DNA of 64,000 nt from Chitinivibrionales bacterium (GCA_038247415.1 JBBRUX010000007.1:42579-106578); one strand, 5' to 3'; numbered from the stretch's first letter, positions 19-19,152 are shown. Notes: generated by a model not told the origin, from the sequence alone. Numbers and translations are program-made.

Positions 19-1194
19 ATGGTTTCAAAAAGCATGATATACACACCACTGTTTTTTGTGGTGTCAATACTGTCGGTAGGATGTTCTAAGAGAGAGAGCG
101 CACAAAAAGAGGAGTCTATCGTTATAGATACTGCTCAAATAGTTACGGTTACTTCTTTGACAGGAAAGGCAATTGGCCTTGTTTCTGAGCCGGTGGCGCT
201 CAAAAAACATACCCGGTTCCTAACCCTTCCTGCGAAGGTTGTGGTAGCGCAGGATAATGATGCTTTTGTGGGATCTCTTATATCGGGACGTGTATGCAAT
301 GTAGTTGTAAAGCTTGGTGACAGGGTAGCAGCAGGACAAACTCTCATGTTTGTGGAAGGACTGGAGATTGGCGAAATCAAGGCCCGGTATGCAACCGCAT
401 CGGCCGAATTCGAATTTGCAAAATCGAACCTTGATAGGCAAAAAAAGTTGTTAGAAAGCAATGTTTCTTCACAGAGGAGTCTTTTGGAAGCTCAGATGCA
501 CTATGATAAAGCAATGGCATTATTTGGTGCAGAAAAGAGCAGGATAAAAGCAATTGGGCTTTCGGAAAGCGATGCAGCAACCCAGGCTGTTTTTTCGGAA
601 GACCGGTGCAGTGGGACTTTGGCCATCAAATCTCCTCTGAGTGGCATTGTCGTAGAACGAAATGTTGTTATTGGTCAATTGGTTGACGGAGGAGTAAATG
701 CATTTAGAATTGTAAATTTGTCGTCTGTATGCGTCGATGCGCAGGTGTACGAAAAGGATCTTGATAAGTGTGTTCTTAAAAGCAGTGCAACATTTTCGGT
801 ATCGGCATACCCAGCAGAAGTTTTTGCAGGCATTGTTACCTCAATTGGTCAAATTGTGGACGAACAGACGCACACTCTGCGCATTCGTGCCGAATTAAAA
901 AATCCGTTTGCAAAGTTGAAGCCTTCTATGTTTGGAGAATTAACGCTTCCCGTTGATAATAAAAAAACTGCACTTATTGTTCCTGCCGAAGCCCTTTTAA
1001 AAATCGATAATGCAGATTGTGTCTTTATCCAAACTTCCGATTCAACGTTTGAAAAGCGAGTTGTTATGGCCAATCCAGCTCCGCGCGAAATGGTGGAAAT
1101 TCTCCAAGGAATCCGCGATGGAGAAAAAGTAGTTGTCAAGGGTGCCTTTTATCTTAAAAGTGAACTCTTAAAATCGTCTTTAGGAGGCGAATAA
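19..1194 (+). CDS. RND efflux periplasmic adaptor (CzcB/CusB family)
   Basis: Lipoprotein-like N-terminus (SVGC), biotinyl-lipoyl-like GRVxxVxVxLGDRV, KSPLSGIVVERNV and LKPSMF motifs; 1 bp upstream of an RND permease. Confidence 0.93.
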   Translation: MVSKSMIYTPLFFVVSILSVGCSKRESAQKEESIVIDTAQIVTVTSLTGKAIGLVSEPVALKKHTRFLTLPAKVVVAQDNDAFVGSLISGRVCNVVVKLGDRVAAGQTLMFVEGLEIGEIKARYATASAEFEFAKSNLDRQKKLLESNVSSQRSLLEAQMHYDKAMALFGAEKSRIKAIGLSESDAATQAVFSEDRCSGTLAIKSPLSGIVVERNVVIGQLVDGGVNAFRIVNLSSVCVDAQVYEKDLDKCVLKSSATFSVSAYPAEVFAGIVTSIGQIVDEQTHTLRIRAELKNPFAKLKPSMFGELTLPVDNKKTALIVPAEALLKIDNADCVFIQTSDSTFEKRVVMANPAPREMVEILQGIRDGEKVVVKGAFYLKSELLKSSLGGE

Positions 1195-1195
1195 T

Positions 1196-4100
1196 ATGTT
1201 GGAAAAAATTATTTCATCGCTTCTGAAACAACGTGCAGGCGTCTTGCTCATTATTGCGCTCATCATTGGCATCGGAACCTATTCGTATTACAAACTGACT
1301 ATCGATGCCTTTCCAGATGTAACCAATATTCAGGTTGATGTGGTGAGCTATGCAGATGGACTCTCGGCAGTTGAAATAGAGCGTTCTGTAACCTATCCGG
1401 TTGAGATGTCGATGCGAGGTTTGCCTAAAGTTAAGCAATTACGTTCCGTAACAAAATTTGGTTTGTCGCTTGTTACGATAGTTTTTGAGGATAATGTTGA
1501 TATTTATTTTGCCCGTCAACTAGTATTTGAGCGGCTGGCCCAAGCAAAAGAAAGCGTGCCGCCTGGTGTGGAGCTTTCTATGGGTCCTATTGCTACTGCA
1601 ATGGGAGAGATCTATCAATTTACGCTCGATGGGAAAATGCCCGATGATGCACAAAAAAAGAAAGAATATCTTACACAACTAAGAACTTTGCAGGAGTGGG
1701 TCATTAACCCGTTGCTCAAAAGTGTCCCCGGTGTCAATGAGATCAATTCCTTTGGGGGGTATTTTAAACAATACGATGTTATAGTATCTCCAGAAAAACT
1801 ACTTAAGTATAACATTGCCCTTTCTGATGTGTTTGCGGCAATAGAAAACAATAATCAGAATGCGGGCGGAAATATTCTAGAAAAATATTCCGATCAATAC
1901 ATTGTTAGAGGAATCGGGCTTATTAAAGACACTACGGATATTGGGAATATTGTCCTGAAAAGTATTGATGGAATCCCAACGCTTATCAAAGATGTTGCGC
2001 AGATACAGCTTGGTGAGGCAGTTCGCCAGGGAGCATCAATGATAAACGGTAAAGATGAAGTGGTTGGTGGAATTGTCATGATGCTGCGAGGTGAAAATAG
2101 CCGCGATGTTGTAAACCGCGTCAAAGCTAAAGTTAAGGAAATCAACGGGAATAATGCCTTGCCAAAAGGAATACAAATTGTTCCGTATTACGATAGATCA
2201 GATATAATCAATGCCTCGATAGGAACGGTAAACAAGGCTCTTTTAGAAGGGGCTCTGCTGGTATTGGTTGTTCTTTATTTGTTGCTGCGAAGCATGCGAG
2301 GTTCATGCGTGGTCCTTATGGGTTTGCCGCTTTCTCTTCTTGTAACTTTTATCGTAATGAAAGCATGGGGTATAAGCGCAAACTTGATGTCTCTGGGTGG
2401 GCTTGCCATTTCTATCGGAATGATCATGGATTCTACCATCATCCAGGTTGAAAATGTTCAGCGTAAACTCAATGAAGCCAAGGCTTCTGCGCACAGAATG
2501 TCGACTATTCTCAAAGCTGTGCTGGAAGTGCAGAAGCCGAGTATTTTTGGGGTTCTTATTATTGCTATTACTTTTATTCCTATTTTGTCGCTTGAAGGGA
2601 TCGAAGGCAAAATGTTTGCTCCCCTTGCTATAACGGTTGCTATAGCTCTTCTTGCGTCACTGGTAGTATCGATTCTCATTACTCCAGGTTTATGTCTTTT
2701 GTTTTTGAAGCCGCAAACAGAAAAGCCTGGCGGAATTATGAATGGCATTAAAAAAGTATATATGCCCCTTCTTCGAAAAAGTATTCGTAAGAAAAAAGTG
2801 ATGATTGGTATTGCAATTGCAGCTCTTGGTGTATCTTTGGGATTATTTACTAAAATTGGTACAGAATTTCTTCCGATTATGGATGAGAGCGCTTTTGATC
2901 TGGATGTTTCGCTTTTACCCGGTGTATCCCTTGACAAAGCCATGGAAATTAATATGCTTATCGGGGAAAAAATGAAAAAGTTTCCCGAACTCAAGACTGT
3001 TGTTTCCCGCACAGGACAAACCGGAGTTGCTCTTGATACCCGTGGAGTTGATAAAACAGGATATGTTGGCGTTCTGTATCCTAAAAAACAATGGAAAATT
3101 AAACGCACCCATGAACAATTGACAGAAGCAATGAGAGATTCCCTTTCATCCATTCCGGGGATCGCCTTTAGCTTTAGTCAGCCCATTCAATGCCGCATTG
3201 ATGAATTGGTTGCGGGAACCAAGGCACAGTTGATTTTAAAGCTTTTTGGTGACAATTTGGAAGTTTTAAAAGAAAAAGCAACAGATATCGAAAAAATCCT
3301 CTCGTCTATAGAAGGATGCACAGATCTTGTTACCGAGAGCATATCAGGGCAACCCTATCTAACTATCGAAATTGACAGATTAAAAATTGCCCGCTATGGG
3401 CTTGCGATACGAGATGTTCAGGAAATCATCGAAATTGCCCTTGCGGGAAAGATTGCATCGCAACTCTATGAAGCAAACAAGAGCTTTGATATTTCTGTTC
3501 GTCTTCCACAAGAGCATCGGACGTCTGTAGAAACAATTGGGAATATTCTGGTACCAACCCCAACTGGTTCCAATATTCCTCTTAGTCAAATTTCAACGAT
3601 TGCCATATCTGTTGGGCCTGTGCAGATAAGTCGTGATGATGGATTGCGCCGAATTGGTATTGAGCTTAATATTTCTGGAAGAGATATAGGGAGCTTTGTT
3701 GCAGAGGCTAAACAGAAAATTATGGAGAAGGCAAAACTTCCCGAGGGCTACTACATAATGTGGGGTGGGCAATTTGAAAACCAGCAGCGAGCAATGGCAA
3801 AACTTGTTATGGTGGGACCGATTGCCATCGGACTTATCCTTATATTACTCTTTTTGACATTTCGTACTATTAGGCTTTCGCTTCTTGTTATTTCCAATTT
3901 ACCGTTTGCGCTTATTGGTGGAATGTTTTCGCTCTGGATATCGGGGCTGTATCTTTCGGTACCGGCTGCGGTGGGTTTTATTGTACTGTTTGGTGTTGCC
4001 GTATTGAATGGCGTAGTTCTTGTTTCGCATATTGCACAACTGCGTGAAGAAGGAATGGATTTGCAAAATGCGCTTGAAACAGGATGCGCAAACAGGCTGC

Positions 4101-4303
4101 GTCCAGTGCTCATGACAGCATCCATTGCAATTTTCAGTCTCATTCCGATGCTGTATGCAAGCGGAACCGGCTCGGAAATACAAAAGCCATTGGCCGTAGT
4201 TGTTGTTGGGGGTCTGGTGACATCAACGCTTTTGACGCTTTTCTTAATTCCTTCCCTGTATGGGTGGTTTGAAAATCGAAAAAAGGTAGTTGAAGAGGTT
4301 TGA
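1196..4303 (+). CDS. Heavy-metal RND efflux permease (CusA/CzcA family)
   Basis: 1035 aa; IDAFPDVTNIQV, TM4 GMIMDSTIIQVEN and RLRPVLMTA motifs. Confidence 0.96.
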   Translation: MLEKIISSLLKQRAGVLLIIALIIGIGTYSYYKLTIDAFPDVTNIQVDVVSYADGLSAVEIERSVTYPVEMSMRGLPKVKQLRSVTKFGLSLVTIVFEDNVDIYFARQLVFERLAQAKESVPPGVELSMGPIATAMGEIYQFTLDGKMPDDAQKKKEYLTQLRTLQEWVINPLLKSVPGVNEINSFGGYFKQYDVIVSPEKLLKYNIALSDVFAAIENNNQNAGGNILEKYSDQYIVRGIGLIKDTTDIGNIVLKSIDGIPTLIKDVAQIQLGEAVRQGASMINGKDEVVGGIVMMLRGENSRDVVNRVKAKVKEINGNNALPKGIQIVPYYDRSDIINASIGTVNKALLEGALLVLVVLYLLLRSMRGSCVVLMGLPLSLLVTFIVMKAWGISANLMSLGGLAISIGMIMDSTIIQVENVQRKLNEAKASAHRMSTILKAVLEVQKPSIFGVLIIAITFIPILSLEGIEGKMFAPLAITVAIALLASLVVSILITPGLCLLFLKPQTEKPGGIMNGIKKVYMPLLRKSIRKKKVMIGIAIAALGVSLGLFTKIGTEFLPIMDESAFDLDVSLLPGVSLDKAMEINMLIGEKMKKFPELKTVVSRTGQTGVALDTRGVDKTGYVGVLYPKKQWKIKRTHEQLTEAMRDSLSSIPGIAFSFSQPIQCRIDELVAGTKAQLILKLFGDNLEVLKEKATDIEKILSSIEGCTDLVTESISGQPYLTIEIDRLKIARYGLAIRDVQEIIEIALAGKIASQLYEANKSFDISVRLPQEHRTSVETIGNILVPTPTGSNIPLSQISTIAISVGPVQISRDDGLRRIGIELNISGRDIGSFVAEAKQKIMEKAKLPEGYYIMWGGQFENQQRAMAKLVMVGPIAIGLILILLFLTFRTIRLSLLVISNLPFALIGGMFSLWISGLYLSVPAAVGFIVLFGVAVLNGVVLVSHIAQLREEGMDLQNALETGCANRLRPVLMTASIAIFSLIPMLYASGTGSEIQKPLAVVVVGGLVTSTLLTLFLIPSLYGWFENRKKVVEEV

Positions 4304-4314
4304 TTCACAGGATG

Positions 4315-4368
4315 AAAGCATTTTTATTGTGGGCTCCGTAAAGGAACTTGATTTAAAAATGCTTTTTT
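4315..4368 (+). terminator. Putative intrinsic terminator after the RND permease
   Basis: 12-bp inverted repeat AAAGCATTTTTA...TAAAAATGCTTT running into a T tract. The loop is long and the stem AT-rich. Confidence 0.4.
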
Positions 4369-4558
4369 CTTGTAGCACTAATCCTTTTGGTGTTCATCCC
4401 CGTCGAATTAAATCCACCCACATATCGACCGTGTTCCATGGCTAATGCGTGTCGTTGATATCACGAAATGGTTCTCCGATTGCTTTGGTTCCTTGGGGAG
4501 CAGTATATTTTACAGTATTAGATAGTGTCTCTCTTTTCTTTGCGCGAAGAGGTTGTAT

Positions 4559-5338
4559 ATGAAGAGAATTTTTTTTTCCTGCTTAAGCTGGATATTGGTT
4601 ACTGTGGGTCTTTTTAGCATGGCCGGGTGTAGCGCCAGCAAAAATAATGTATCTGGAAAGACTTCGGCACTCTTTGTTCGTGTGCAAGCAACGGTAAATG
4701 GGGAAGATTTGAAGTATGGTTCGGTTTATAAAACCAGCTCTGGTCGACAATTTAGGATTTCAGATTTTCGTTATTACCTCACGAGAATCGGCGCTACCCG
4801 TTCCGATGGAACTCAAAACGCCCCGTTTGATTCTGTTATCCTTATTTCTCCAGATTTACAAAGTTCCTATCTTCGTGTCCCTGTTTTACAAGGGGCGTAT
4901 AAATCCTTACAATTTACAATCGGTTTAGATTCACTCAAAAATCATGGAGATCCCACCGTATACGCTTTGCCTCATCCATTGGCTATTCAGACTCCGAGCA
5001 TGCATTGGGATTGGAACAGCGGGTATCTCTTTTTGAAATTAGAAGGGTTGGTTGATACTACGGTACAGGCAAATGGCCCAATAAATACGGAATATTTTTA
5101 CCATATTGGCCTCGATACTATGCTGCGAGCGGTTGATATCCCCATAGCATTTTCAGTGCCGTCTTCTGGTGCCTGCTCACTGGACGTACGCTGCGGGATC
5201 GATTCGATTATAGCGCATATCGATTTTTTAAAAGAGAGATCGACCCATACTTTTGATAATCTTCCCTTGGCGCAAAGGATTATGGATCGCATAATCAATT
5301 CGTTTGCTGTTGTCAATATACATCCTGCAATTCAGTGA
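4559..5338 (+). CDS. mbnP: MbnP-family copper-binding lipoprotein
   Basis: Lipobox MAGC; DFRYY, NHGDP and MHWDWNSGYLFLKLEG (WxW) motifs; directly precedes an MbnH-like gene. Confidence 0.85.
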   Translation: MKRIFFSCLSWILVTVGLFSMAGCSASKNNVSGKTSALFVRVQATVNGEDLKYGSVYKTSSGRQFRISDFRYYLTRIGATRSDGTQNAPFDSVILISPDLQSSYLRVPVLQGAYKSLQFTIGLDSLKNHGDPTVYALPHPLAIQTPSMHWDWNSGYLFLKLEGLVDTTVQANGPINTEYFYHIGLDTMLRAVDIPIAFSVPSSGACSLDVRCGIDSIIAHIDFLKERSTHTFDNLPLAQRIMDRIINSFAVVNIHPAIQ

Positions 5339-5361
5339 TAGTGTGCAGATTTGGCTGAGAG

Positions 5362-6390
5362 GTGCAATTTGTGGAAAAACAAACCCGATTTGTAGTATTT
5401 GTTCTTTGTGTATGTGGAGCAGGTATTGGCATTGGCTTAATTGGCGTGTATTTCTACTTTTCTCCCTTCTTGGATCAGAGCAATCAGATTGTACACTATA
5501 AAATACCCCGAGGTTTTCCGTATCCTCTAATTCCTGTTGATAATCAGCCTACCAAGAATCGTATCGCATTGGGTAAGCAGCTTTTTTTGGATCCTATCCT
5601 CTCAAAAGATTCAACTATTTCGTGCGCATCCTGCCATAAAGAATCGGCTGCGTTTGCTGATGGTTTGCCTAAAAGTAAAGGTATTAATGGGAACTTTGCT
5701 TTGCGTAATGCCCCAACTATAATTAATTGTGCATACCTGCCGTATACTACCTGGGATGGAGGGGTACCAACACTTGAGCAACAGGTTCTTGTTCCCATAG
5801 CAAATCCTTTAGAAATGGGCTTTGATATTAATAAGGTTGTGGAGAGGCTTAAAAGAGATCGAAATTATGTGAGTTTGTTTAAGAGTGCTTACCAACAAGG
5901 TCCCTCAGTATATACCCTTACTCGGGCTATTGCATGCTACGAACGTTCACTTTTGAGTACTGGTTCCCGATACGATAGATTTCTTTATGAGAAAGATACT
6001 ACCGCATTAACACAATCTGAAAAAAAAGGAAAAGATCTCTTTTTTGGTGAACGAGGAGAGTGCTTTCATTGTCATGGAGAATACAACTTTACCGATTATA
6101 GTTTCAAAAACAATGGGCTCTCTGAAATATATGCAGATTCAGGCAGAGCACGCATTACGTTATCGCGTAGTGATGTTGGCAAATTTAAGGTTCCATCGTT
6201 ACGAAATATTGCGCGCACAGCTCCTTATATGCATAATGGCTCTATTGTTACGCTAGAATTGGCGGTAGATCATTATGCACGGGGTGGATATGCTCATCCT
6301 AACAAGAGTGGCCTCATTAAACCCATCAATTTGACAGATAAAGAAAAAAGTGAACTTGTAGATTTTTTAAAAGCACTTTCCGATGATTAA
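5362..6390 (+). CDS. mbnH: Di-heme cytochrome c peroxidase, MbnH/MauG family
   Basis: Two CxxCH sites (CASCH, CFHCH), RNAPT, WDG and FKVPSLRNIARTAPYMHNGS. Confidence 0.9.
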   Translation: MQFVEKQTRFVVFVLCVCGAGIGIGLIGVYFYFSPFLDQSNQIVHYKIPRGFPYPLIPVDNQPTKNRIALGKQLFLDPILSKDSTISCASCHKESAAFADGLPKSKGINGNFALRNAPTIINCAYLPYTTWDGGVPTLEQQVLVPIANPLEMGFDINKVVERLKRDRNYVSLFKSAYQQGPSVYTLTRAIACYERSLLSTGSRYDRFLYEKDTTALTQSEKKGKDLFFGERGECFHCHGEYNFTDYSFKNNGLSEIYADSGRARITLSRSDVGKFKVPSLRNIARTAPYMHNGSIVTLELAVDHYARGGYAHPNKSGLIKPINLTDKEKSELVDFLKALSDD

Positions 6391-8065: not shown

Positions 8066-8895
8066 TTATCTGTTTTCTTTGGTCAAATCGGATCCTGCGA
8101 TTGATGGAATTAATTTTAAAAGTTCCATAAATGCAATTGCGATAACCCCACCGGAAAGTGCCAAAAGTACATCTGTTATAGAAACATTTCCAAACTGAAA
8201 AATATTTTTAAGAAAAGGCAGTGTGAAAATTAGGCTCATCAGGACTGTTGTTCCGTCCATTAGCCATCTGAACGCAGCATTCTTTTCAGCGTGCAGACGG
8301 GATCGATAATCAGTTCAAGAAAAACAATATGAACGGGAAATAGAATAAGAGGCCATTTAAAAAGGCCTGGTATCCATGAGAGTCCTGTAATTGGTATATG
8401 AACCGAGAGAATATACATCATAGCTTTTTTGAGGTTGTCATAGATGCGTCGTCCCATGCGAACTGCTGTCACAATAGAATTAAAATCGTCATCAGGAAGA
8501 ACAAGAGATGCAGCTTCGCGGGCAACATCGGTACTACGACCACCCATGGCTATGCCGATATGCGCAGCCTTAAGTGCGGGGGCACCGTTGACACCATCGC
8601 CGGTTGTGGCGACTATTTCCTTGTTAATCTTTAGAGCATTGACAATACGTAGTTTCTGTTCCGGTACCATGCGAGCGAATATATAACTTCTTTGATCTGC
8701 ACAGCAAGTTCATCATCACTCAGAGCTTCGAGTTTCGAGCCACTGTGTTTGTGTCTTGTCGAAGTGGCATAAGTCCGCACTTGCTTCTGGTGCGCCTTTG
8801 GCTGCAATTACCAATTAATCACCCGATTCGGAAGTCCACACGCGCGACATTGCGAGAAGCTCTTTACTGAGAGGATATTCGCGCTGTAAGTTCCA
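8066..8895 (-). pseudogene. Cation-transporting P-type ATPase relic
   Basis: Fragments REYPLSKELLAMSRVW, in-frame TAA at 8815-8817, AAKGAPEA, PEQKLRIV, TGDGVNGAPALKAAHIGIAMG and C-terminal TM pieces, in different frames with large deletions. Confidence 0.88.
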
Positions 8896-9253: not shown

Positions 9254-10438
9254 CTAAAACTTTTTCGTTATCGACATATCAATGGTGTGATACGTATAAG
9301 AATTTTTTCCAAAAAAAGAATAAGCACTATAAGGTTGTGAATAAATCTTATACTCGACACCAAGGGAGGTATTCCACCAAAGGTTTTTTGCCATTGAAGC
9401 TGTAAAAGTCAACGGAGCCAAGCCATTATAGAAGTAGTAAAAATCTCCAAAGCCAGCAAGGATATTTTTGGGGACAGATTGATAGTATCCCCGATACGTT
9501 CCGCCAGAAACAAGAGGCATGGTAATTTTACTAAACAAATTATTGATTAGCGCTTCGTTACTGGCCCATTTCTTTTCAAATGCTAGAATGCAATGAGCAG
9601 ACCATTCATCTTGTGGTGTTGTATAAGGTGCATAGCCGTATAGAATTTCGCCAGAATCAGTTTCTGCTAATGGTAGATAAAAATTTTCTTGGGTTGTACG
9701 GTAAGCGATTGACAAGCCACCATACAAAACAGGAGTAATGGGGCCGAATGTGTAAAATGAAAAGTTGTGAAGTGTATTTTCGGGGAGTGGGTTTGTAGCA
9801 TCATCAATAAAATTTCTCAGTGGATTTACCACGTCAAAAAATGTCTTGAAAAACAGAGTGTCATTTAAAATCGTATTCAGGTCTTTTCTGTCAACACTCT
9901 TATACTGATCATTCTGGTAATCGCAGTGGAACTCCCACTGTGCAACCTGTGCGGCGACATCGGCGCCAATGGAGCGTTTTGTAACGCCGATATATTGTGC
10001 AAAAGGATTTTCGGCAGTAACGCCATAATCAAATCGCACGTGGGGTGACCATCGAACGGCCGGTGCCGCAGGTAGTGTAAATGACAGTGGTAGCGAACCA
10101 CTGAAACGCATGCGACCAGATTTTCCTGTTGGATACCAGACCTGCTGATATGTGGGTGTGGCCTCAAAGGCGCCAATCGTTAAAAAATAACTGCACCCCG
10201 CAGAAATCCTTTTGTCTGCAATGGGTGCAAATCCGCTGATGGAATGGGATATTTTAGATTCCTGATAATCAACCGATGCAGAAATAAGTCCAAGACCAGC
10301 TTTAAAATTTTTCAATTTCGCTTCTACGTCTGTGGCATGGAAGTATGTGTTGTCAAAAAGATAGCTGTACATTCCAGAGATCTCCCGACTTGAAACGATG
10401 GATACGGTGAGCATAAGTATGCTCAACAGAATTTTCAT
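9254..10438 (-). CDS. Putative outer-membrane beta-barrel protein
   Basis: Signal peptide, aromatic-rich alternating strands, C-terminal Phe (ITKKF); 4-bp overlap with the upstream gene. Confidence 0.6.
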   Translation of the reverse strand: MKILLSILMLTVSIVSSREISGMYSYLFDNTYFHATDVEAKLKNFKAGLGLISASVDYQESKISHSISGFAPIADKRISAGCSYFLTIGAFEATPTYQQVWYPTGKSGRMRFSGSLPLSFTLPAAPAVRWSPHVRFDYGVTAENPFAQYIGVTKRSIGADVAAQVAQWEFHCDYQNDQYKSVDRKDLNTILNDTLFFKTFFDVVNPLRNFIDDATNPLPENTLHNFSFYTFGPITPVLYGGLSIAYRTTQENFYLPLAETDSGEILYGYAPYTTPQDEWSAHCILAFEKKWASNEALINNLFSKITMPLVSGGTYRGYYQSVPKNILAGFGDFYYFYNGLAPLTFTASMAKNLWWNTSLGVEYKIYSQPYSAYSFFGKNSYTYHTIDMSITKKF

Positions 10439-11775
10439 CGTATAACCCTATTCTTAAATGTAAAAACGTCTAGATTATTGCTGATAGTTACTACATACAT
10501 TCCCTTGACGATAGGCTTTGAAAAGTTGATAGATGTAGTGTTGTGCTCTACCGGCATTTGGAGCAACAGTTTTCCGTCGGGTGTGTGTATCCGCACCATT
10601 GCACCTAGCAAGCCGGTCATTGCGCCCATAGCAAGGCTGGAACGGGTAAGTGTGGGCGATAAGGCGGTTCTGCGTATCGATGGAATCAAATTTTTTACAT
10701 CGCGAACATCGGTAAAAAGCGACATCGGAGCTATTTTGAGCGTCATTGACGTTCCGCTCTTGTCGAACCAGCACAGCGTGTCGCTATGTAGTGTTGGATG
10801 TCCCTGGTATCCTGGCGCAACAACAAGCGGAACGGTAGTGCCGGACACGGTATTATACCCATAGATGTCTGCATTGGTACTGTCGGTTGATGTTGCGTTG
10901 CGAAAGTCTTCCCATACAATCCAGTTCCCTCGAACAAAGGGGTTTCCTTGATATTTTGAGGCTATACAAATCGGAGTTGTTACTCCATTTGTCAAATTGT
11001 ATGAATAGATGTCTCCGTTTTTATGATCTACTGTGGCATTACGATAATCTACCCAGACAGCGACATTACCATCGATGCGTGGATCATCTTTCCCAGCAGA
11101 AAAAGGGGCAATTTCGATACCTGATGAGGTGACTGGAGTATACGAAAAAAGCCGCCCAAAAGACTGTGCATTATCTATCCAGACAATCGAACTACCGTCG
11201 GTAAACGGTTTGCCTTGGTATGCATGATCATTGGTTATTCGACGCTCTTGGTTTGCAGAAAGATCATACATGAAGATTTCGCTATTGAGACTGTCGACTG
11301 AGGTAGAATCCCAATAGCGGTAATCCACCCAAATAGCATAGTTCCCCCCAACCCAGACAGCTTCTTTCCAACTGCTGTTTGTGGTCAATTGTCGAGTAAC
11401 ATTGGTACTAATATTTTTTTCATAGAGATAACAGGTACGGCCTCCGCTACCTGCTCCACCACCAGAACCAGGCGTTCCAGATGCAAGGTATGGAACATAC
11501 ACCAATCGGTTATTCGCATAGCCATAAGTGATGTAATAGGGCATTGAGTTGTCGCTTGGGACAGCAACGGTTTTAGCTTTTGTAGCAAGTGTTACGAGTG
11601 AAACCTGGGCCCAGTAGAGAGAGGACGTGGCATAATGGTAGTCAAAACAGGCCATTTTTCCCTGAGACATGACCCCCCAGGTATCGGTGCTTACCGATGT
11701 CAATACTTCCTCGGAAGAAACCGCAGCAATGAGTAGTGGAAAGCTTACCGTTAGTATTTTGAGTATGCGATTCAT
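10435..11775 (-). CDS. Secreted beta-propeller repeat protein with T9SS-like C-terminal domain
   Basis: Repeated (I/V)W(V/E)D(Y/F)R...(D/E)I(Y/F)xY(D/N) blades with YQGxP turns; tail TPDGK...KGMYVVTIS. Confidence 0.75.
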   Translation of the reverse strand: MNRILKILTVSFPLLIAAVSSEEVLTSVSTDTWGVMSQGKMACFDYHYATSSLYWAQVSLVTLATKAKTVAVPSDNSMPYYITYGYANNRLVYVPYLASGTPGSGGGAGSGGRTCYLYEKNISTNVTRQLTTNSSWKEAVWVGGNYAIWVDYRYWDSTSVDSLNSEIFMYDLSANQERRITNDHAYQGKPFTDGSSIVWIDNAQSFGRLFSYTPVTSSGIEIAPFSAGKDDPRIDGNVAVWVDYRNATVDHKNGDIYSYNLTNGVTTPICIASKYQGNPFVRGNWIVWEDFRNATSTDSTNADIYGYNTVSGTTVPLVVAPGYQGHPTLHSDTLCWFDKSGTSMTLKIAPMSLFTDVRDVKNLIPSIRRTALSPTLTRSSLAMGAMTGLLGAMVRIHTPDGKLLLQMPVEHNTTSINFSKPIVKGMYVVTISNNLDVFTFKNRVIR

Positions 11776-12854
11776 AGATTTTCTCCTTTGTGATAGGTTT
11801 TGATTTTTATGTGATCTGTAATTTCTTTTTTGTCTATTTTTGTATACACCTCCGCATCGCTTGTGAAACTCAGGTCAACCGGTAATCCTGACGGTGTCTG
11901 TGCCTGGGGCGCATCGAATATTATAAGGCCTTTAACAAGAGGGAAGTTTTTGGTGGCAAGCGAGTGAAACATATCGCGGTACCAGTCGTTCTTGTTGCCG
12001 CCGCCTTGCCCACACCCAGCCTCGGCGATTATAATGGGCTTATTATAGCCCTTAACAGCATCGTAGAGGATTTTTGTTACCGTATAAAAATCCATCCACA
12101 AACCGTTTTCGGCCAGCGAACCAAAGTTAAATATGTCGAGTCCGATCCAATCGACATATTTATCGCCAGGGTAGTTTGCCGTGTCTGCTGGGATATAGGG
12201 ATTCCAAACAAAAGCGACATTACGCGCTCCTTCCTGGGCAAAGATGTCGTGCACATGGCGCCAGAACCTCTTGTATGATTCTGGCGAATTTCCGTGTGAG
12301 GTACTCCAAGAGTACCACGGGTTGGACATCTCGTGCCCGGGTCGAAGGAAAAAAGGCTTTTTAAGCTTCGCCGCCTCCCGTGCCCAGGCATGTATAAACA
12401 AATCAAATTGACCTTGACTGATGATATTCAGGGACGAGTCTACCTGACTATCCCTAAATTTTTTAAAGGCCGATACCCAAGGCTCCCAGGTTATCAAGGG
12501 AGTGTAACCGCCATTGACAAGATTACGATTGACATCGGTTAAAAAAGCATGCTCTTTCTGGTCTCCCCAAGCCTGGTAATAGGAGACGATTGAGACCTGC
12601 GCACTTAACCCTTCCTGAACCACAAACAGCATTCCGAATTCATAGGGTAATTCGGGCCGGTAAAGTCCAAGAAAAAATTCACTTTCTTGTGTCAATGCAA
12701 TCTTGTCTTGGACCAGGTTTTTTGTAACACGCTGATAATAGACTTCGAGCCCCACACGCTCAAATGGTTTTATCGCATAGATATAGGCTGCAACAATAAT
12801 ACCAGATATTAGAGCAATTTTTAGCATGATAAAAATGCTTTTCATGCACCACAC
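11772..12854 (-). CDS. Glycoside hydrolase family 26, membrane-anchored
   Basis: PLITWEPW, RPGHEMSNPWYSW (acid/base), YPGDKYVDWIGLDIFNFG, KPIIIAE (nucleophile). The start may be ATG 12845. Confidence 0.9.
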   Translation of the reverse strand: MWCMKSIFIMLKIALISGIIVAAYIYAIKPFERVGLEVYYQRVTKNLVQDKIALTQESEFFLGLYRPELPYEFGMLFVVQEGLSAQVSIVSYYQAWGDQKEHAFLTDVNRNLVNGGYTPLITWEPWVSAFKKFRDSQVDSSLNIISQGQFDLFIHAWAREAAKLKKPFFLRPGHEMSNPWYSWSTSHGNSPESYKRFWRHVHDIFAQEGARNVAFVWNPYIPADTANYPGDKYVDWIGLDIFNFGSLAENGLWMDFYTVTKILYDAVKGYNKPIIIAEAGCGQGGGNKNDWYRDMFHSLATKNFPLVKGLIIFDAPQAQTPSGLPVDLSFTSDAEVYTKIDKKEITDHIKIKTYHKGENL

Positions 12855-14359
12855 CCCTTTTTTGGAAACAAGCCCCAGAATACCACAGGGGCTAATGACA
12901 CAACATTCATTACTGCAAATACCATCATAAGCTGCGTGCCGCTATCGATCCGAGGATATGTTGTTAGGACAAATGCGATTGACATACACGACAAAAGGAT
13001 GGCGATTATATGCGGGAGCACAAGCGTTATGCTTGTTTTTTCGGATCCCGATTTAGGCGTGGGAATCCAGACAATATTCTTTCCTGTTAATGAATAAAAA
13101 AGAGCCAGCGTATAGATGTGCCATGTCCCTTTTTCCAAAAACATCGAACGCCAGGGGAAGCCTTTTTCCTGCGGCGCCGAATACCAGCGCTGGATATACA
13201 TACTGAGCATAAGCGAAGCGATCACATACGGCGTTATGTGCAGGAAATATCCGCTTATAGGCATTTCTATTGCATATATCTTGAAAAAGATAAAAATGAC
13301 AGGCAGAATAATTGTTAATAAAGTAACAGCTCCATTCAGATAAAATGTCCCGGCAAACAGGTAGTAGATTTTTTGTTGAATATTGAGATTAAAAAATGCC
13401 TTTGGATATTCGTGCAGCAAAAGATCAAACATTCCTTTGGCCCATTTGATCTGCTGTTTAAAGAATGACGCAAGGTCTTCGGGTACGAGTCCGTATGATG
13501 CACGATACGGCACGTATCGTCCTTTCCATCCGGCAGCATGCAATCGAAGGGATGTGCAGGCATCTTCGGCCAAATGGACTGCATGGCCATCAATAGAATC
13601 AAGTGCCGCGCGACGAAAAGTACAATTAGCACCAATGGCAATTGCTGAATCAAGGCCAGAAAGTCCCATTTGCAGTGGCCCGTAAAATCCAAACCCCTGC
13701 TCGGCAGCGGCGTGTGCAACCACATTTTTATCAGCGTTATAATATGCCTGAACAACCTGAACAAATCCCACTTTTTCATCGTTGAAATATGGCAGTGTTC
13801 TGTCAAGAAAATCCGGTTCGGGTATGTGGTCGGGGTCAAGCACCAGAACAAGCTCAGCCTTCGAGAAGTTTTTAAGGCAGTAGTTTATTTTCCCCGCCTT
13901 TGCTCCGGGCACCCCTTTACAATTTATATGCCCAACTCCCAATTCTGAGCACAGCGATTTAAGTTGCGGATCATCGCTTCCATCAAGAAGGTAGGATGTG
14001 TGTGGATGTGTAATCTTTTGCATTGCAATCAGGGTTGTCCGGAACATATCACATGGCTCGCCCGGCATGGCAGTTGTAAAAATATCGACTGTCCGGTGCG
14101 TTGTTGAGGTGTGTAGTGACGGGATGGCAATAAACTGGAAAAAGATCCAACTTATTACTGATCTAACAACGCCACGAAAAACAGCATAACTGAGGAGTAT
14201 AAACAGAAAAATATTGACGCGATGGCCTCCAAAAAACCAGTAGTCGGCCCAGTACAGTGCTGCTTCGATAGCAAGTATCGTGAGTATGGCAAACAGTATT
14301 CTGTCCCACCAGCCAATCCTTATGGTTGTCTGCCCTGTAGAGTACATTATTTTACCCAT
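12842..14359 (-). CDS. Cellulose-synthase-like GT2 membrane glycosyltransferase without PilZ domain
   Basis: LLDG, GAKAGKIN, DPD, FVQVVQ, AED and QQIKW (QxxRW variant); 2 N-terminal and several C-terminal TM segments. Confidence 0.92.
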   Translation of the reverse strand: MGKIMYSTGQTTIRIGWWDRILFAILTILAIEAALYWADYWFFGGHRVNIFLFILLSYAVFRGVVRSVISWIFFQFIAIPSLHTSTTHRTVDIFTTAMPGEPCDMFRTTLIAMQKITHPHTSYLLDGSDDPQLKSLCSELGVGHINCKGVPGAKAGKINYCLKNFSKAELVLVLDPDHIPEPDFLDRTLPYFNDEKVGFVQVVQAYYNADKNVVAHAAAEQGFGFYGPLQMGLSGLDSAIAIGANCTFRRAALDSIDGHAVHLAEDACTSLRLHAAGWKGRYVPYRASYGLVPEDLASFFKQQIKWAKGMFDLLLHEYPKAFFNLNIQQKIYYLFAGTFYLNGAVTLLTIILPVIFIFFKIYAIEMPISGYFLHITPYVIASLMLSMYIQRWYSAPQEKGFPWRSMFLEKGTWHIYTLALFYSLTGKNIVWIPTPKSGSEKTSITLVLPHIIAILLSCMSIAFVLTTYPRIDSGTQLMMVFAVMNVVSLAPVVFWGLFPKKGCGA

Positions 14360-15201
14360 AAGAGTTTTTCCAGACTTAGTTTGGCACGTTTGTTGTCGGG
14401 AGCTATAATTATCATGTTTTTATATGCATCCCGCGCTTCACTAAATTTACCCGTCCACTCAAGTATCTGGCCCTTGAGTTGCAATGCGTCAAGAATGCGA
14501 TCACGTACTTCTGGAGGAGCGCTTGCCGGCTTTCGATCCATTGCAATGACACTGTCCAGTTCACTTAATGCCGCGAGCGACTGGCCCTTCCATGCAGTTA
14601 CTTCCGCACGACGGATTTTAGCGTGCATACGAAGGGTACGAGGGGCACTTGGGTCATCGACAACTCTGGTAAAAAGCGCTATCGATTCGTCAAACTTCTT
14701 TTTCCAGGAAAGAACCTCGGCTTTATGGTTCATTGTTGCCCAAGGTTGCTTTTCTTTTGCGATCATGCTGTCGTAACATGCAATGGCTTCATCGAATTTT
14801 CCCAGCATTTCCAAACGCATGGCAAAAACATTTTTATAGGCATGTTGGGTTTTGTTAGTTACTTTGTCGAGCAAACTGCCGGCTTTTTTGAATTCTTTTT
14901 TCCACAGCAATACTTCTGAGTAATGTATAAGCACAGGATCATCGGCCTTCCCTGATGCAACTACCATTTCTAGATACAAAACAGCCGAATCTGCTTTGTA
15001 AATATGATAAAATGCTTCCCCTTTAAGCCGGAATGTTTCGTTGTTGTGTGTGCATTCTGCCAGAATTACAAGCGCTGTGTCATAATTTTGTTTACTAATG
15101 GCCTGCATCGCTTTTTTCTGACAGGCATCTTGTGCCTGCAATGGCATAGTCACGTAGAACAGCATCAGAATCGACCAATGAGCAATGGTCATGGTTCGCA
15201 T
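14347..15201 (-). CDS. Exported tetratricopeptide-repeat protein
   Basis: Signal peptide; helical repeats with the recurring (A/G)xxLxWxxxxxx(A/S) pattern (EVLLWKKEF, EVLSWKKKF, EVTAWKGQ, QILEWTGKF). Confidence 0.82.
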   Translation of the reverse strand: MRTMTIAHWSILMLFYVTMPLQAQDACQKKAMQAISKQNYDTALVILAECTHNNETFRLKGEAFYHIYKADSAVLYLEMVVASGKADDPVLIHYSEVLLWKKEFKKAGSLLDKVTNKTQHAYKNVFAMRLEMLGKFDEAIACYDSMIAKEKQPWATMNHKAEVLSWKKKFDESIALFTRVVDDPSAPRTLRMHAKIRRAEVTAWKGQSLAALSELDSVIAMDRKPASAPPEVRDRILDALQLKGQILEWTGKFSEARDAYKNMIIIAPDNKRAKLSLEKLLWVK

Positions 15202-16133
15202 ACAGCAACTCTCCTTTTGCGTTCAAAGTCAATGGTTTTATTTATTCCAGCATCCAGACTTGTACTCGGTTGCCAGTTGAGAATTTTTTTAGCTTTTGTG
15301 CCGTCAACGCAATACTCCCACGACTCTTTGTCGCGATAAGGAATCGCACCTGGCCGTACTTTATTCTTTTCACCAACCAATTTTTCTACCATGACAGCAA
15401 CATCTCGCAGCATGGGAGCATGTCCGGTTCCAAGGTTGAAAAGACCGGAAATTTCGGGCTGATCAAGAACAATCTCAATGGCATTGACCAGGTCATCGAT
15501 ATAAATAAAGTCTCGGGTCTGTTCGCCTTTTGTCATGGGAAATTCCTTTCCATCCAGCAGCGATGAAACCAGCGTTGGAATAAACATTGCGTTTGTCTGA
15601 CCAGCACCATAGAGTATACCTATTCTGAAAATCACCCACGAAAGAGCGTATCTGTTGCCATAAAATCGGATAAGCTGCTCACTCATAAGTTTTGATAAGG
15701 CGTAAAAATCGCCCGGATCAGTCTGCATCGCTTCGGTGAATGGACCTTTTTGACTGCCATATACCAGTGCTGTTGACGGAAAGACTATACGCGCCTTGTG
15801 CTCTTGTGCCATTTCGAGGAGGAGAAACGTTGCCTGAATATTTGAATTCATAATAGCAAAGTAGGTGTTCGTGTCTGATGCTTGGGAAATGATTGCTGCA
15901 AGATGTATGATAGTGTCAAACCTATACATTAGAGAAAGTTTTTCGATACACGGTCGGCTTGATAAATCCCCTTTATGATATTCTATACCTGCGTGAAGGT
16001 TTTCGTTCAATGGAATAAAGTTTTCGTGAACATCAACGGCGACAATATTCGTTTTTGGCCGATTGACAAGAAAATTGATGAGATTGCGACCCACAAAGCC
16101 GTTTGCGCCGGTAACAAGAATTACATTGTCCAT
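15189..16133 (-). CDS. NAD(P)-dependent nucleotide-sugar epimerase/reductase (extended SDR)
   Basis: VTGANGFVG, HLAA, YALSK, GEQTRDFIYIDD; AGGAGG RBS before ATG 16133. Confidence 0.9.
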   Translation of the reverse strand: MDNVILVTGANGFVGRNLINFLVNRPKTNIVAVDVHENFIPLNENLHAGIEYHKGDLSSRPCIEKLSLMYRFDTIIHLAAIISQASDTNTYFAIMNSNIQATFLLLEMAQEHKARIVFPSTALVYGSQKGPFTEAMQTDPGDFYALSKLMSEQLIRFYGNRYALSWVIFRIGILYGAGQTNAMFIPTLVSSLLDGKEFPMTKGEQTRDFIYIDDLVNAIEIVLDQPEISGLFNLGTGHAPMLRDVAVMVEKLVGEKNKVRPGAIPYRDKESWEYCVDGTKAKKILNWQPSTSLDAGINKTIDFERKRRVAVCEP

Positions 16134-17224
16134 GGTAAACCTCCTTGTGCAGCTTTTTCCACATAGAGTGCCAAATCTTCTGCTGTGGAAACAGTATTGA
16201 TGGTATAAAAGTTTTTGTACCACTGAACTGTCCGTTCAAACGTAGTTTCGAGATCCCATGTTGGATGCCACTTTAGCATTGAATGCGCCTTTGAGCAATC
16301 AAGACTGAGGAAGCGCGCTTCGTGGGGGTTTTTTTCCGACGATTGGATTTCGTATGCGATGGCAGCCCAGTATTTTTTGACTTTGCGTACAACCTCTTCG
16401 ACGCACAGCGAACCTTCGGGTGGTGGACCGAAATTAAACGCAGTTGCAAAGTCGCGCTGCTCCAGCAGTAGGTGTTGACCTACTGTTAAATAGCCGCTTA
16501 AACATTCCAGAACATGCTGCCATGGGCGTGTAGCATGGGGACTGCGAATGACAACTGTTTCCTTGTGGGAACACGATCGCATGATGTCGGGAATAAGCCT
16601 ATCTCGCGCCCAGTCTCCGCCACCAATCACATTGCCTGCACGCACACTTGACAAAAGGATGTTGTGGGATTTGCCATATTCTGCAAGATTAAAAAATGAA
16701 TTGCGATAGCTTGCAATCATTATCTCTGCGCATGCTTTAGAGGAGCTGTATGGGTCATATCCTCCGAGTTCATCAACTTCCCGATATCCCCACCACCATT
16801 CCCGATTCTGATAGACTTTGTCTGTGGTGATTGCCACAATAGCGCGCACCGATTCGGATGCGCGACACGCTTCCAATACATTCATTGTGCCAATAACATT
16901 TGTGCTGTAGGTACCCACCGGATCGACATATGAATCGCGCACAAGGGCTTGCGCTGCAAGGTGAAACACAATTTCAGGTTTTTTTTCTGCTATTGTTTTA
17001 CCGAGCAATTCAGTGTCGCGAATATCACCGATGATTGAATTGATATCTAAGAATAGGCTGCTAAAGTGATTAGGTTCAGATTGTGGCTGCAAGGAGTATC
17101 CGGTGACCTCGGCTCCCATTTTTTTGAGCCAATATACCAACCATGACCCCTTGAAGCCCGTGTGACCTGTTACAAAAACTTTTTTACCTGCGTAAACTCC
17201 ATTAAACAAATTTCGAAATTGCAT
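16121..17224 (-). CDS. rfbG: CDP-glucose 4,6-dehydratase
   Basis: VTGHTGFKGSWL, HLAAQALV, TTDKVY, DPYSSSK, RAGNVIGGGDW, RPWQHVLE. Confidence 0.97.
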   Translation of the reverse strand: MQFRNLFNGVYAGKKVFVTGHTGFKGSWLVYWLKKMGAEVTGYSLQPQSEPNHFSSLFLDINSIIGDIRDTELLGKTIAEKKPEIVFHLAAQALVRDSYVDPVGTYSTNVIGTMNVLEACRASESVRAIVAITTDKVYQNREWWWGYREVDELGGYDPYSSSKACAEIMIASYRNSFFNLAEYGKSHNILLSSVRAGNVIGGGDWARDRLIPDIMRSCSHKETVVIRSPHATRPWQHVLECLSGYLTVGQHLLLEQRDFATAFNFGPPPEGSLCVEEVVRKVKKYWAAIAYEIQSSEKNPHEARFLSLDCSKAHSMLKWHPTWDLETTFERTVQWYKNFYTINTVSTAEDLALYVEKAAQGGLPWTM

Positions 17225-17235
17225 CGTGTGCTCCT

Positions 17236-18084
17236 TTACCAGATTTTCCAGGGTGCTTTTTTATCATTCCACATCGCGTTGAGGGCCATGTAGTCTTTAT
17301 ACGTGTCCATGCAGTGCCAGAAACCTTCGTGCTTGAACATTCCCAATTGACTGCTGCGTGCTAATCGCTTGAAAGGCATCTCCTCAAGAACACAATCGTC
17401 ACCAGTTATTATGTCGAATATACCCCGATTGAAAACAAAAAAACCGCCATTGATAAGACCTGACATAACTGGCTTTTCCCGGAATGATGTCACCATATCT
17501 TCGGCATCAGCTTCAACGATTCCAAAGGTTGTTGGAAGATGCACTCCGGTAAGTGTTGCGGTTTTACATTTTTTTTTGTGAAAAGCCAGCAGAGCACTGA
17601 TATCTACGTCTGAAACGCCATCACCATAGGTACAAAAAAAGAGGTCTTCGGTGATATACTTTTCGATTCGTTTTATTCGGCCGCCGGTCATAGTGTTTTC
17701 GCCGGTAAGGGCAAAGGTGATTTCCCATTCATCAACGTCTGCGTCGGTGGCTGGGCTCATTTTATTTAAATCACTTCTTTCTCCGGGACCTTGTGGATTA
17801 AGATTTCTGGTAAAAGGAGAGCTGCTAATTTTCATGGTAAAATCGTGATTGCGTTTGTGGTAATTTGCAAAGTAATCGATGATTGTTTCGCCTTTATAGC
17901 CAAGGCACAAAACAAATTTTTTAATGCCATAGGTCGAATACGTCTTCATGATATGCCAGAGAATTGGCTTACCGCCAACATCGATGAGCGGCTTTGGGAG
18001 CGATTCCGAAACCCCCTTTATCCGTGTTCCCTGTCCGCCGCACAGAATAACTACCTGATACTCGGCCAGATCACTGATAGCCAT
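17236..18084 (-). CDS. rfbF: Glucose-1-phosphate cytidylyltransferase
   Basis: ILCGGQGTRI, PKPL, WHIMK, TMTGGRIKR, TYGDGVSD, INGGFF, GFWHCMDT, APWKIW. Confidence 0.93.
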   Translation of the reverse strand: MAISDLAEYQVVILCGGQGTRIKGVSESLPKPLIDVGGKPILWHIMKTYSTYGIKKFVLCLGYKGETIIDYFANYHKRNHDFTMKISSSPFTRNLNPQGPGERSDLNKMSPATDADVDEWEITFALTGENTMTGGRIKRIEKYITEDLFFCTYGDGVSDVDISALLAFHKKKCKTATLTGVHLPTTFGIVEADAEDMVTSFREKPVMSGLINGGFFVFNRGIFDIITGDDCVLEEMPFKRLARSSQLGMFKHEGFWHCMDTYKDYMALNAMWNDKKAPWKIW

Positions 18085-18318
18085 AAAACCCTCCTGAAAA
18101 TTTTAAGTTTCCTGCATGTCTGTATGGGTGTGTCTCTTGAAATATAGCATTTTTAAAATTAAATGTGAATAGAATTAATTCAATTAATTTTTATTTTTTT
18201 TCTTAATTAAGTATTTAGCCTATTAAAATCAATAAGTTGCATAATATTAGTGAATAAAATATTTTATAAAATATTTATATGTGTTGAAGTGTTCGTCAGT
18301 TTTGTATATTATCATAGT

Positions 18319-19152
18319 ATGAAACCAGAGCTTTTTACCTATCTCGATTACCGACATTATCTCAAGGACCTTTTTGAAGCGCTGAAAAAAGGAGATGAGG
18401 GATTATCGTACCGCATGTTTGCAAAAATGGCCGGTTCAAGTTCGCCTAATTTTTTACAGCTCATCATCCAGCGCAAACTTAACATTGGGCAATCGCATAT
18501 CAGAGCTCTTGCTGAATCGATAGTGCTTTCCAAAAAAGAGGAAGGTTTTTTAGAAACCATTGTTGCCTTTGACCATGCCAAAACGCATGAAGAAAAAAAC
18601 AAATACTACCGCAGAATGCTTTTAACGCGTGAATATAGCTCAATAAGGCAATTGCAAAAGGAACAATACTCCTATTTTTCCAAATGGTATCTGCCGGTTA
18701 TTCGTGAATTGGTTGTTGCATCGGACTTTACAGGAAATATGACCGCGCTTGGTGATCGTATTGTCCCGCCTGTATCTGCGAGCAAAGTTAAAAAAGGAAT
18801 TGCACTATTGGAATCGTTGGGACTTATACAAAAAGATCCAGACCGCTATATACTATCAAATGCAGTTTTAAGTACGCCTTCCGAGGTTATCTCGCTGGCA
18901 GTAACTCACTACCACAAAGACGTGATTGCGCTTGCGGCAGAGGCAATCGAAAAGTTTCCTGCGCAGGATCGCGACATTCGCGCAGTAACGCTGGGTGTTG
19001 ATGCCGACGGATTCCTGGAAGTTAAACAACGCCTCGAAAGGTTTTGGAAGGAGCTTCTAGAATTTGCTGATACGCAGAAAACTCCCACCCGGGTCGTGCA
19101 GGTCAACATGCAGCTTTTTCCGTTGACAAAAGACAAGGAATTTAAAGCATGA
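18319..19152 (+). CDS. TIGR02147 family protein (DUF4423, N-terminal HTH)
   Basis: FTYLDYRHYLKD, SYRMFAKMAGSSSPNFL, YFSKWYLPVIREL, QVNMQLFPL. Confidence 0.9.
   Translation: MKPELFTYLDYRHYLKDLFEALKKGDEGLSYRMFAKMAGSSSPNFLQLIIQRKLNIGQSHIRALAESIVLSKKEEGFLETIVAFDHAKTHEEKNKYYRRMLLTREYSSIRQLQKEQYSYFSKWYLPVIRELVVASDFTGNMTALGDRIVPPVSASKVKKGIALLESLGLIQKDPDRYILSNAVLSTPSEVISLAVTHYHKDVIALAAEAIEKFPAQDRDIRAVTLGVDADGFLEVKQRLERFWKELLEFADTQKTPTRVVQVNMQLFPLTKDKEFKA

Follow-up and report, generated by a model that had tools for sequence, protein, structure and literature searches.

A 64,000-nucleotide stretch of DNA from a Chitinivibrionales bacterium of the phylum Fibrobacterota (genome of 3.84 Mb, 96% complete), called the window below, carries an operon in which genes for a sugar activated with cytidine diphosphate (CDP) precede genes predicted to act in the synthesis and export of a polysaccharide. 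Positions are counted from the first letter of the window unless a related locus is named. In order of transcription the operon encodes RfbF, RfbG, an extended short-chain dehydrogenase/reductase (SDR), an exported tetratricopeptide repeat (TPR) protein, a BcsA-like glycosyltransferase of family GT2, a membrane-anchored glycosidase of family GH26, a secreted beta-propeller and an outer-membrane beta-barrel. It raises the question of which sugar nucleotide feeds the synthase and what polymer leaves the cell. The answer that we favour, with moderate confidence, is a synthase-dependent system that would polymerise a CDP-6-deoxyhexose made by direct reduction of a 4-keto intermediate.

An operon with CDP-sugar genes and a BcsA-like synthase

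The eight genes are co-oriented and translationally coupled on the minus strand between positions 9254 and 18084. All are present as the initial annotation had described them, with a gap of 11 nucleotides after rfbF and overlaps of 4 or 13 nucleotides at each other junction. AGGAG-like sites occur at most of the junctions. A promoter and terminator scan gave counts no higher than those of shuffled sequence; a single promoter-like site was detected upstream of rfbF (18169-18141) but carries no weight.

The first gene (17236-18084) encodes an RfbF-like glucose-1-phosphate cytidylyltransferase. TIGR02623 is by far its best family (E-value 3.3e-88), PF00483 being matched as well. The TIGR02623 score of 295.4 bits lies about 5 bits below the cut-off of 300.25 because an insertion splits the match into two stretches. 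This gene is the only one of its type in the genome, and its relatives at the same position are 53-68% identical. The product of rfbG (16121-17224) scored 496.2 bits with TIGR02622, the equivalog model of CDP-glucose 4,6-dehydratase (cut-off 278.45), and is the sole copy in the genome above that cut-off. The identity initially given to rfbG is thus upheld, and RfbF is the likely one for the first gene.

The SDR gene (15189-16133) was listed as an open reading frame (ORF) starting with GTG, but residue 31 of that ORF is encoded by an ATG at 16133, which is most likely the correct start. The protein matches Pfam Epimerase (PF01370, 156 bits) and no NCBIfam model above its cut-off. None of 27 orthologues departs from its S/T-Y-K triad. 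The 4,6-dehydratases carry a T-D-E motif, and the SDR reads S-T-(G/A)-L at this position. The product of RfbG needs reduction at C4, and the position of the SDR, coupled to rfbG, would make it the sole candidate for this step; none of the related loci examined has a further reductase candidate linked to it. Direct reduction of CDP-4-keto-6-deoxyglucose has enzymological precedent: as described in the available text of two sources, it is converted to CDP-D-fucose by HS41.18 of Campylobacter jejuni (PMC12369002) and to CDP-6-deoxy-D-glucose by CDP-paratose synthase (PMC7851689).

The initial annotation had reported that ddhC is absent from the operon. RfbH/DdhC was indeed not found there, nor anywhere else in the 96%-complete genome, in which the best score with NF011936 was 194 bits (cut-off 423). 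The two DegT-family proteins of the genome fit PseC/ArnB-like and LegC-like models better and are located in other clusters. This leaves the organism without a 3-deoxygenation route. Neither wzx nor wzy is present in the operon.

The GT2 protein (12842-14359; PF13632, PF13641 and PF03552) contains about seven hydrophobic segments. Its best solved relatives are BcsA of Rhodobacter sphaeroides (5ej1, E-value 2.5e-37) and of Escherichia coli (3e-33), with homology spanning the glycosyltransferase domain, the interface helices and the transmembrane region. In the alignment to BcsA, the initially reported motifs DPD, AED and QQIKW fall on DxD, TED and QxxRW respectively, and WIPTPK falls on the FxVTxK gating loop. 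The protein remains under the cut-offs of the curated BcsA families TIGR03030 (177.8 bits versus 699.1) and NF008558 (148 versus 992). Database names of its relatives are generic, such as "cellulose synthase (UDP-forming)", where UDP is uridine diphosphate, and include no characterised relative. With Pfam and NCBIfam profiles GT2 is the sole glycosyltransferase within the operon and gave no PilZ match, two points on which the first description was correct. The same profiles revealed no cyclic di-GMP receptor of the PilZ, Alg44, PelD or PgaCD type in the eight operon proteins, and no BcsB family match was found among these proteins, the set searched. Solely from the absent match to PilZ or another known receptor, we infer that the system may be independent of cyclic di-GMP.

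The next gene (11772-12854) probably starts at the ATG at 12845, which corrects the listed ORF. It encodes a GH26 protein (PF02156, 55.5 bits versus a cut-off of 20.2) with one N-terminal transmembrane segment as an anchor. Among solved structures, the best match to this protein is the GH26 module of Clostridium thermocellum CelH (Lic26A, E-value 1.2e-24), mannanases following at 1e-8 or worse. The HE and AE motifs of the protein line up with those in Lic26A, in agreement with the two catalytic Glu residues initially noted; we take these to be the acid/base and the nucleophile. The 27 aligned Fibrobacterota orthologues retain the two Glu residues, with the exception of one broken copy (L045). 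Lic26A is a secreted, cellulosomal beta-1,3-1,4-glucanase, whereas the GH26 protein of the window has a membrane anchor and its gene belongs to a biosynthetic operon.

The TPR protein (14347-15201), a putative periplasmic scaffold, matches several TPR Pfam families and has a hydrophobic, signal-like N-terminus. Signal-like N-termini are also found in the propeller protein (10435-11775) and the barrel protein (9254-10438). The propeller protein contains TIGR04275 repeats, and its AlphaFold2 model (pLDDT 85) predicts a TolB/PD40-like propeller and, C-terminal to it, a sandwich resembling the sorting domain of the type IX secretion system (T9SS). TIGR04183, the T9SS tail family, was matched with 18.4 bits, under its cut-off. 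The top Foldseek matches are TolB-type propellers and generic, and atlas neighbours carry Por_Secre_tail.

No family match was obtained for the barrel protein in Pfam or NCBIfam. It was folded with AlphaFold2 from an 18-sequence alignment, giving a model with a pLDDT of 89 and a pTM of 0.83. The five best Foldseek matches of this model are BcsC (three times), PgaA and PelB. An independent all-against-all comparison with VIA-align gave Z scores of 22.6 and 22.3 for BcsC, 21.9 for PgaA and 21.2 for PelB, the next match being at 17.6. The predicted folds fit the barrel and propeller labels of the initial annotation. They also fit its view of the locus as a synthase-dependent secretion layout, since the operon appears to combine a processive BcsA-like GT2, a TPR scaffold, an outer-membrane barrel of the BcsC/PgaA/PelB fold class and, in GH26, a putative periplasmic polymer-cleaving enzyme.

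Conservation of the linkage and of the GT2 motifs

A search of 296 genomes of the phylum revealed GT2 orthologues, of 48-65% identity, in 30 genomes that represent many family codes; in the large genus g42 the only similar proteins are about 1050 residues long and 29% identical. About 19 kb around 29 of the orthologues, from 29 genomes and more than ten family codes, were compared with the window proteins. The genes rfbF-rfbG-SDR stand upstream of TPR-GT2-GH26 in the same orientation in 25 of these loci. The remaining four (L057, L060, L063 and L068) end at a contig edge before the region concerned. The initial annotation had proposed to look for this order in other genomes, and it is thus kept in 25 of 29 Fibrobacterota loci as well as in metagenome contigs (see below). 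The TPR gene is directly upstream of GT2 in 26/29 loci, and GH26 follows GT2 in 28, the contig of the last one stopping at GT2. A propeller homologue is present in 23/29 loci. For the barrel, tblastn matches were obtained in 10 loci; a second profile, applied to 7 further loci, showed that an ORF of about 400 residues between SDR and TPR belongs to the same family (hhalign 99.9%).

The SDR subfamily (E-values below 1e-35) is likewise present in 30 of the 296 genomes, 28 of which also hold GT2. The two GT2 genomes without the SDR are fragmented assemblies of 550 and 650 contigs. Conversely, in genome G074, which has the SDR and no GT2, contig L102 reads rfbG-SDR-MBOAT-SGNH-barrel-TPR and then ends.

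CDP-glucose dehydratases above cut-off are more widespread. They occur in 84/296 genomes (a tally that takes in the unpublished genome G253, on which no other result draws), including 29 of the 30 GT2 holders, and 55 other genomes of the phylum carry them in Wzx-type clusters. At L094, for instance, an unlinked rfbG is accompanied by genes for a C-methyltransferase, a 3,5-epimerase, a DegT aminotransferase and a flippase, and at L100 by genes for a 477-residue DegT-family protein and a thiamine diphosphate enzyme. In a FastTree phylogeny of 39 RfbG sequences, 29 of the 30 linked copies, that of the window included, form one clade with the copy of genome G075 (support 100), apart from the unlinked ones. 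The only linked RfbG outside this clade comes from a metagenome locus, L110.

The module itself has been rearranged in a few relatives. At L050:24-2752, L053:16884-19476 and L073:3398-4870, the genes for propeller and barrel are located upstream of rfbF and not, as in the window, downstream of GH26, and a second TPR gene is also found upstream of rfbF in L050 and L053; the order of the module was thus shuffled while the linkage was kept. Genes for an AlgI-like MBOAT protein and an AlgX/J-like SGNH protein are inserted between SDR and barrel at L058:4920-7470 and L072:12851-15374. By tblastn, L102 of G074 (1751-4320) matches the MBOAT and SGNH proteins of L058. At L071:9031-10473 and L060:17-1414, Pfam detected the MBOAT protein only, with no SGNH match. 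In synthase systems, an MBOAT and an SGNH protein usually form the pair for O-acetylation in the periplasm, and the polymer of the relatives that bear them is probably O-acetylated. The window operon does not contain this module.

CDP-linked GT2s differ from CDP-less ones at two motifs. The former read LLDGG(N/D)D and GAKAGK(I/V)N(H/Y), whereas the latter read LCDE(G/A)ND or L(L/V)DDG, and AKAGNINN; the corresponding motifs of E. coli BcsA are ILDDGG and HAKAGNINN. No difference between the groups was observed in the gating loop, in QQxKW or in the three catalytic Asp residues. In poplar CesA8, according to the available part of the source, the DDG Asp forms a bond with the ring nitrogen of uracil, and uridine is stacked between Glu265 and Lys436 (PMC9934533). 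From the alignment to BcsA, we assign Glu265 to the Glu by the motif of the first strand and Lys436 to the Lys of the KAG motif. Under this assignment the DGG and KAGK changes would both touch the nucleotide pocket.

A first scan, of genome contigs, used strict peptide patterns and gave 14 loci. Metagenome contigs were then scanned with an alignment holding both GT2 groups, and 80 loci were sorted; those with at least 4 kb upstream of GT2 were considered assessable. Nine loci were of the KAGK type, and all four assessable ones (L103, L104, L110 and L168) have rfbF, rfbG, SDR and TPR upstream of GT2. Of these, L104 and L168 represent DNA already sampled in the genome loci L055 and L058, so that only two of the four are new. 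In the short KAGK contig L108, SDR and TPR are visible. The other 71 loci, 34 of them with at least 4 kb upstream, were of the KAGN type, and no rfbF-like or rfbG match was found in any of the 71. The initial annotation had allowed that close GT2-GH26 loci might usually lack the CDP genes. This does not hold within the same clade, in which assessable loci always carry them, but it does in the more distant clade, in which they are never found. That the two sets of genes lie together by chance was considered and rejected, given the recurrence of the order in 25/29 loci, the co-occurrence of SDR and GT2 and the KAGK versus KAGN split of the metagenome loci.

In a FastTree phylogeny of 113 GT2 sequences, the 38 KAGK rows form one side of a branch with support 92, corresponding to one change. 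The most divergent KAGK member is that of L110 (4156-9476; 47% identity), where the order is rfbF-rfbG-SDR-TPR-GT2 and no further sugar-modifying genes are present. Its rfbG falls in the RfbG clade otherwise drawn from Wzx-type clusters, which suggests that the CDP link was made or renewed independently in this locus. Proteins named Polyangia, of 52-55% identity, also carry the DGG and KAGK signature.

In other phyla, homologous GT2s (33-41% identity) share one polypeptide of 1257-1321 residues with a GH26-like domain and a further TIM domain, GH2_C-like and of the GH-A type. Such fusions were found in Tepidisphaeraceae (Planctomycetota; L003:2864-6829) and Opitutaceae (Verrucomicrobiota; L004:2669-6490), both with a degenerate GH26 Glu region, and in Chitinophaga (L005:5034-8807) and Gillisia (L009:9944-13741), two Bacteroidota in which the Glu pair is kept. 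L003 has a BcsQ-like ATPase gene upstream and a TPR-barrel protein gene downstream. In Ignavibacteria the homologous GT2 is unfused and stands alongside other genes. No CDP genes were found in these loci of other phyla, whether fused or unfused. The fusion suggests that synthase and GH26 act next to each other on the periplasmic side. No characterised member of the wider GT2-GH26 family was found in literature or protein-name searches.

Proposed pathway and competing explanations

In the pathway that we propose, RfbF would make CDP-D-glucose, which RfbG would dehydrate to CDP-4-keto-6-deoxy-D-glucose. In turn, the SDR would reduce C4 directly, without 3-deoxygenation, to give a CDP-6-deoxyhexose. 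As to stereochemistry, we lean towards the gluco form, D-quinovose, over D-fucose, because the hydrolase of the parent family is lichenase-like and 6-deoxyglucose would be the least change for synthase and hydrolase. The GT2 of the inner membrane would use this donor, alone or with CDP-glucose, for a beta-linked chain threaded through its own channel. GH26, anchored in the membrane, may trim or release the chain at the periplasmic face, and the TPR protein and the BcsC/PgaA/PelB-like barrel would carry it across the periplasm and the outer membrane. The propeller, with its tail resembling a T9SS sorting domain, may act at the cell surface.

Several known systems come close to this scheme. As in the Bcs system (BcsA-BcsB-BcsZ-BcsC), there is a BcsA-homologous GT2 with D, D, D, Q-x-x-(R/K)-W and a gating loop, a putative periplasmic glycosidase, and TPR repeats with a barrel whose best structural match is BcsC. 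Unlike Bcs, the operon has neither a PilZ nor a BcsB match, uses GH26 in place of GH8, encodes TPR and barrel as separate proteins, and adds dedicated CDP-sugar genes and changed nucleotide-binding motifs. TPR and barrel are also separate proteins in the alginate system, as AlgK and AlgE. Further likenesses to the Alg, Pga and Pel systems are the barrel fold, near PgaA and PelB, and the AlgI-like and AlgX/J-like proteins inserted in relatives; the family relations of the synthase, the sugar and the hydrolase differ, and the operon lacks a match to a cyclic di-GMP receptor. The CDP-less GT2-GH26 systems of other phyla resemble it in a GT2 of 33-47% identity, a GH26-like domain or gene and, in some, a TPR-barrel exporter, but they have no CDP genes, carry canonical D(D/E)x and KAGN motifs and fall on the opposite side of the GT2 tree.

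On the sugar side, the Salmonella and Yersinia pathway to CDP-3,6-dideoxyhexoses (DdhA-D, or RfbF, G, H and I) shares RfbG and probably RfbF, its first two enzymes, with the operon. It differs by RfbH/DdhC, found in neither operon nor genome here, and the operon is also without wzx and wzy. Another analogy is the CDP-D-fucose pathway of C. jejuni HS:41 (HS41.21, HS41.20 and HS41.18), which, in the available text, proceeds through a cytidylyltransferase, a 4,6-dehydratase and direct C4 reduction (PMC12369002). In the operon, the genes for a cytidylyltransferase and a 4,6-dehydratase stand next to that for an SDR whose triad is intact. In C. jejuni, the same source indicates, the sugar is acted on by a 3,5-epimerase and by a pyranose-furanose mutase before it enters the repeat unit of the capsule (PMC12369002). 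Here, in contrast, neither enzyme is linked and the sole transferase is a processive synthase.

Several points weigh against the pathway. We know of no processive membrane GT2 synthase shown to use a CDP sugar, and none emerged from our searches. The nearest solved structures to the SDR are generic epimerases and dehydratases (about 1e-29), none of them reductases, and its database relatives bear generic names only ("nucleoside-diphosphate-sugar epimerase"), with no characterised close relative among them. An Asp ends beta-2 in 23/27 SDR orthologues, and an Asp at this position favours NAD(H) over NADPH. KAGK/DGG and the CDP link characterise one clade, so that their association represents one evolutionary event, or two with L110. 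The CDP-less systems of the sister clade, among them the fusions in Bacteroidota, Planctomycetota and Verrucomicrobiota and the 71 KAGN metagenome loci, indicate that the core machine does not need a CDP sugar. Finally, genome G075, of the window's own family and 94% complete, has rfbF-rfbG-SDR of the linked type (L093:1758-4700) followed by unrelated genes for a kinase-like protein binding cyclic nucleotides, TonB and PriA. Neither a GT2 orthologue nor GH26 was found in this genome with our queries; the three sugar genes can therefore persist alone.

The main rival explanation, to which we give a minor share of probability, is that GT2 is an ordinary UDP-glucose beta-glucan synthase, as its CDP-less relatives presumably are, and that the co-transcribed rfbF-rfbG-SDR serve another acceptor, such as lipopolysaccharide, a glycoprotein or a glycolipid, by way of a transferase whose gene lies outside the operon. 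The sister-clade systems without CDP genes, the persistence of the sugar genes without the synthase in G075 and the dehydratases in Wzx-type clusters of 55 other genomes are all consistent with it, as is the closeness of GH26 to a beta-1,3-1,4-glucanase. The operon itself, however, holds no second transferase. Adjacency and orientation are kept in 25/25 assessable loci and again in L103 and L110, and the SDR subfamily is almost confined to genomes holding GT2. Linked RfbG proteins, moreover, form a clade of their own, apart from the copies of Wzx-type clusters. The GT2 motifs point in both directions: D, D, D, QxxKW and the gating loop are common to both clades, whereas the motifs that contact the nucleotide have changed in one clade specifically.

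Somewhat less probable still is a mixed polymer, for which CDP-glucose would be the chief donor and into which 6-deoxyhexose units would come in alternation or at intervals. One active site working with two donors has precedent, for example in hyaluronan synthase. The product of RfbF could serve as a donor in its own right, any CDP sugar would be compatible with the altered nucleotide motifs, and a lichenase-like GH26 suggests a glucan-like backbone. If CDP-glucose were enough, however, rfbG and SDR need not be so strictly kept, and nothing in the sequence points to two donors.

The nearest solved relatives of the SDR, 4-epimerases and dehydratase-like proteins, and the Asp at the end of beta-2, which suggests bound NAD, would both suit an epimerase. 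That the SDR is one, the operon making another CDP sugar and an enzyme encoded elsewhere processing the 4-keto sugar, is nevertheless very improbable: enzymes like CDP-tyvelose 2-epimerase do interconvert CDP-glucose and CDP-mannose, as stated in the available part of PMC7851689, but RfbG is a full equivalog whose product can be used as a donor only after the action of a 4-reductase, none of the loci has another reductase candidate linked to it, and the solved CDP-tyvelose 2-epimerases match the SDR at E-values of 1e-16 and 3e-13, against 1e-29 for its top matches.

Flanking genes and significance of the system

The operon is flanked by unrelated genes. Upstream lie a divergent TIGR02147/DUF4423 gene, lgt and thioredoxin genes. 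The first of these (18250-19152, plus strand; TIGR02147 256.9 bits, PF14394), divergent from rfbF, may encode a regulator; its membership of the operon is uncertain, and a homologue adjoins the operon in 9/29 related loci. Downstream, positions 19-6390 (plus strand) carry genes for an RND efflux pair (HlyD-like and AcrB-like), then for MbnP and a di-haem cytochrome c peroxidase/MauG-like protein, which form an MbnPH-like, copper-related pair. The downstream flank also includes a Band-7 protein gene and a P-type ATPase fragment. The latter, an ORF of 136 residues just downstream of the operon (8260-8670, minus strand), aligns to positions 572-693 only of the 854-position P-type Ca-ATPase model TIGR01522 (111 bits) and looks like the remnant of a far larger gene.

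To our knowledge, all described synthase-dependent polymers, namely cellulose, poly-N-acetylglucosamine, Pel, alginate, hyaluronan, curdlan and mixed-linkage glucan, are made from UDP or GDP (guanosine diphosphate) sugars. Literature searches returned nothing that joins CDP-glucose with BcsA, or glucose-1-phosphate cytidylyltransferase with synthase-dependent systems, and nothing on this system under Chitinivibrionia exopolysaccharide. For GH26 in synthase-dependent exopolysaccharide, only an irrelevant Wzx/Wzy cluster of Actinoplanes surfaced in the text available.

We put forward, more tentatively than the pathway itself and with some doubt, that the operon could encode the first processive, membrane-embedded BcsA-type synthase working on a CDP-6-deoxyhexose. 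Its product would be a 6-deoxyhexan secreted through a BcsC-like porin, for example a beta-linked D-quinovan ("deoxy-cellulose or deoxy-lichenan"), and the changes from DDG to DGG and from KAGN to KAGK would represent a switch from uridine to cytidine recognition. The system is compact, with eight genes, and occurs across many Fibrobacterota lineages, which makes it amenable to heterologous expression. Its CDP-less parent family occurs widely and is likewise uncharacterised. With two motif changes between them, the linked and unlinked clades would amount to a natural experiment in nucleotide-base recognition by GT-A synthases. If the proposal is true, these bacteria would add a new donor class for synthases and, probably, a new hydrophobic deoxy-sugar polymer.

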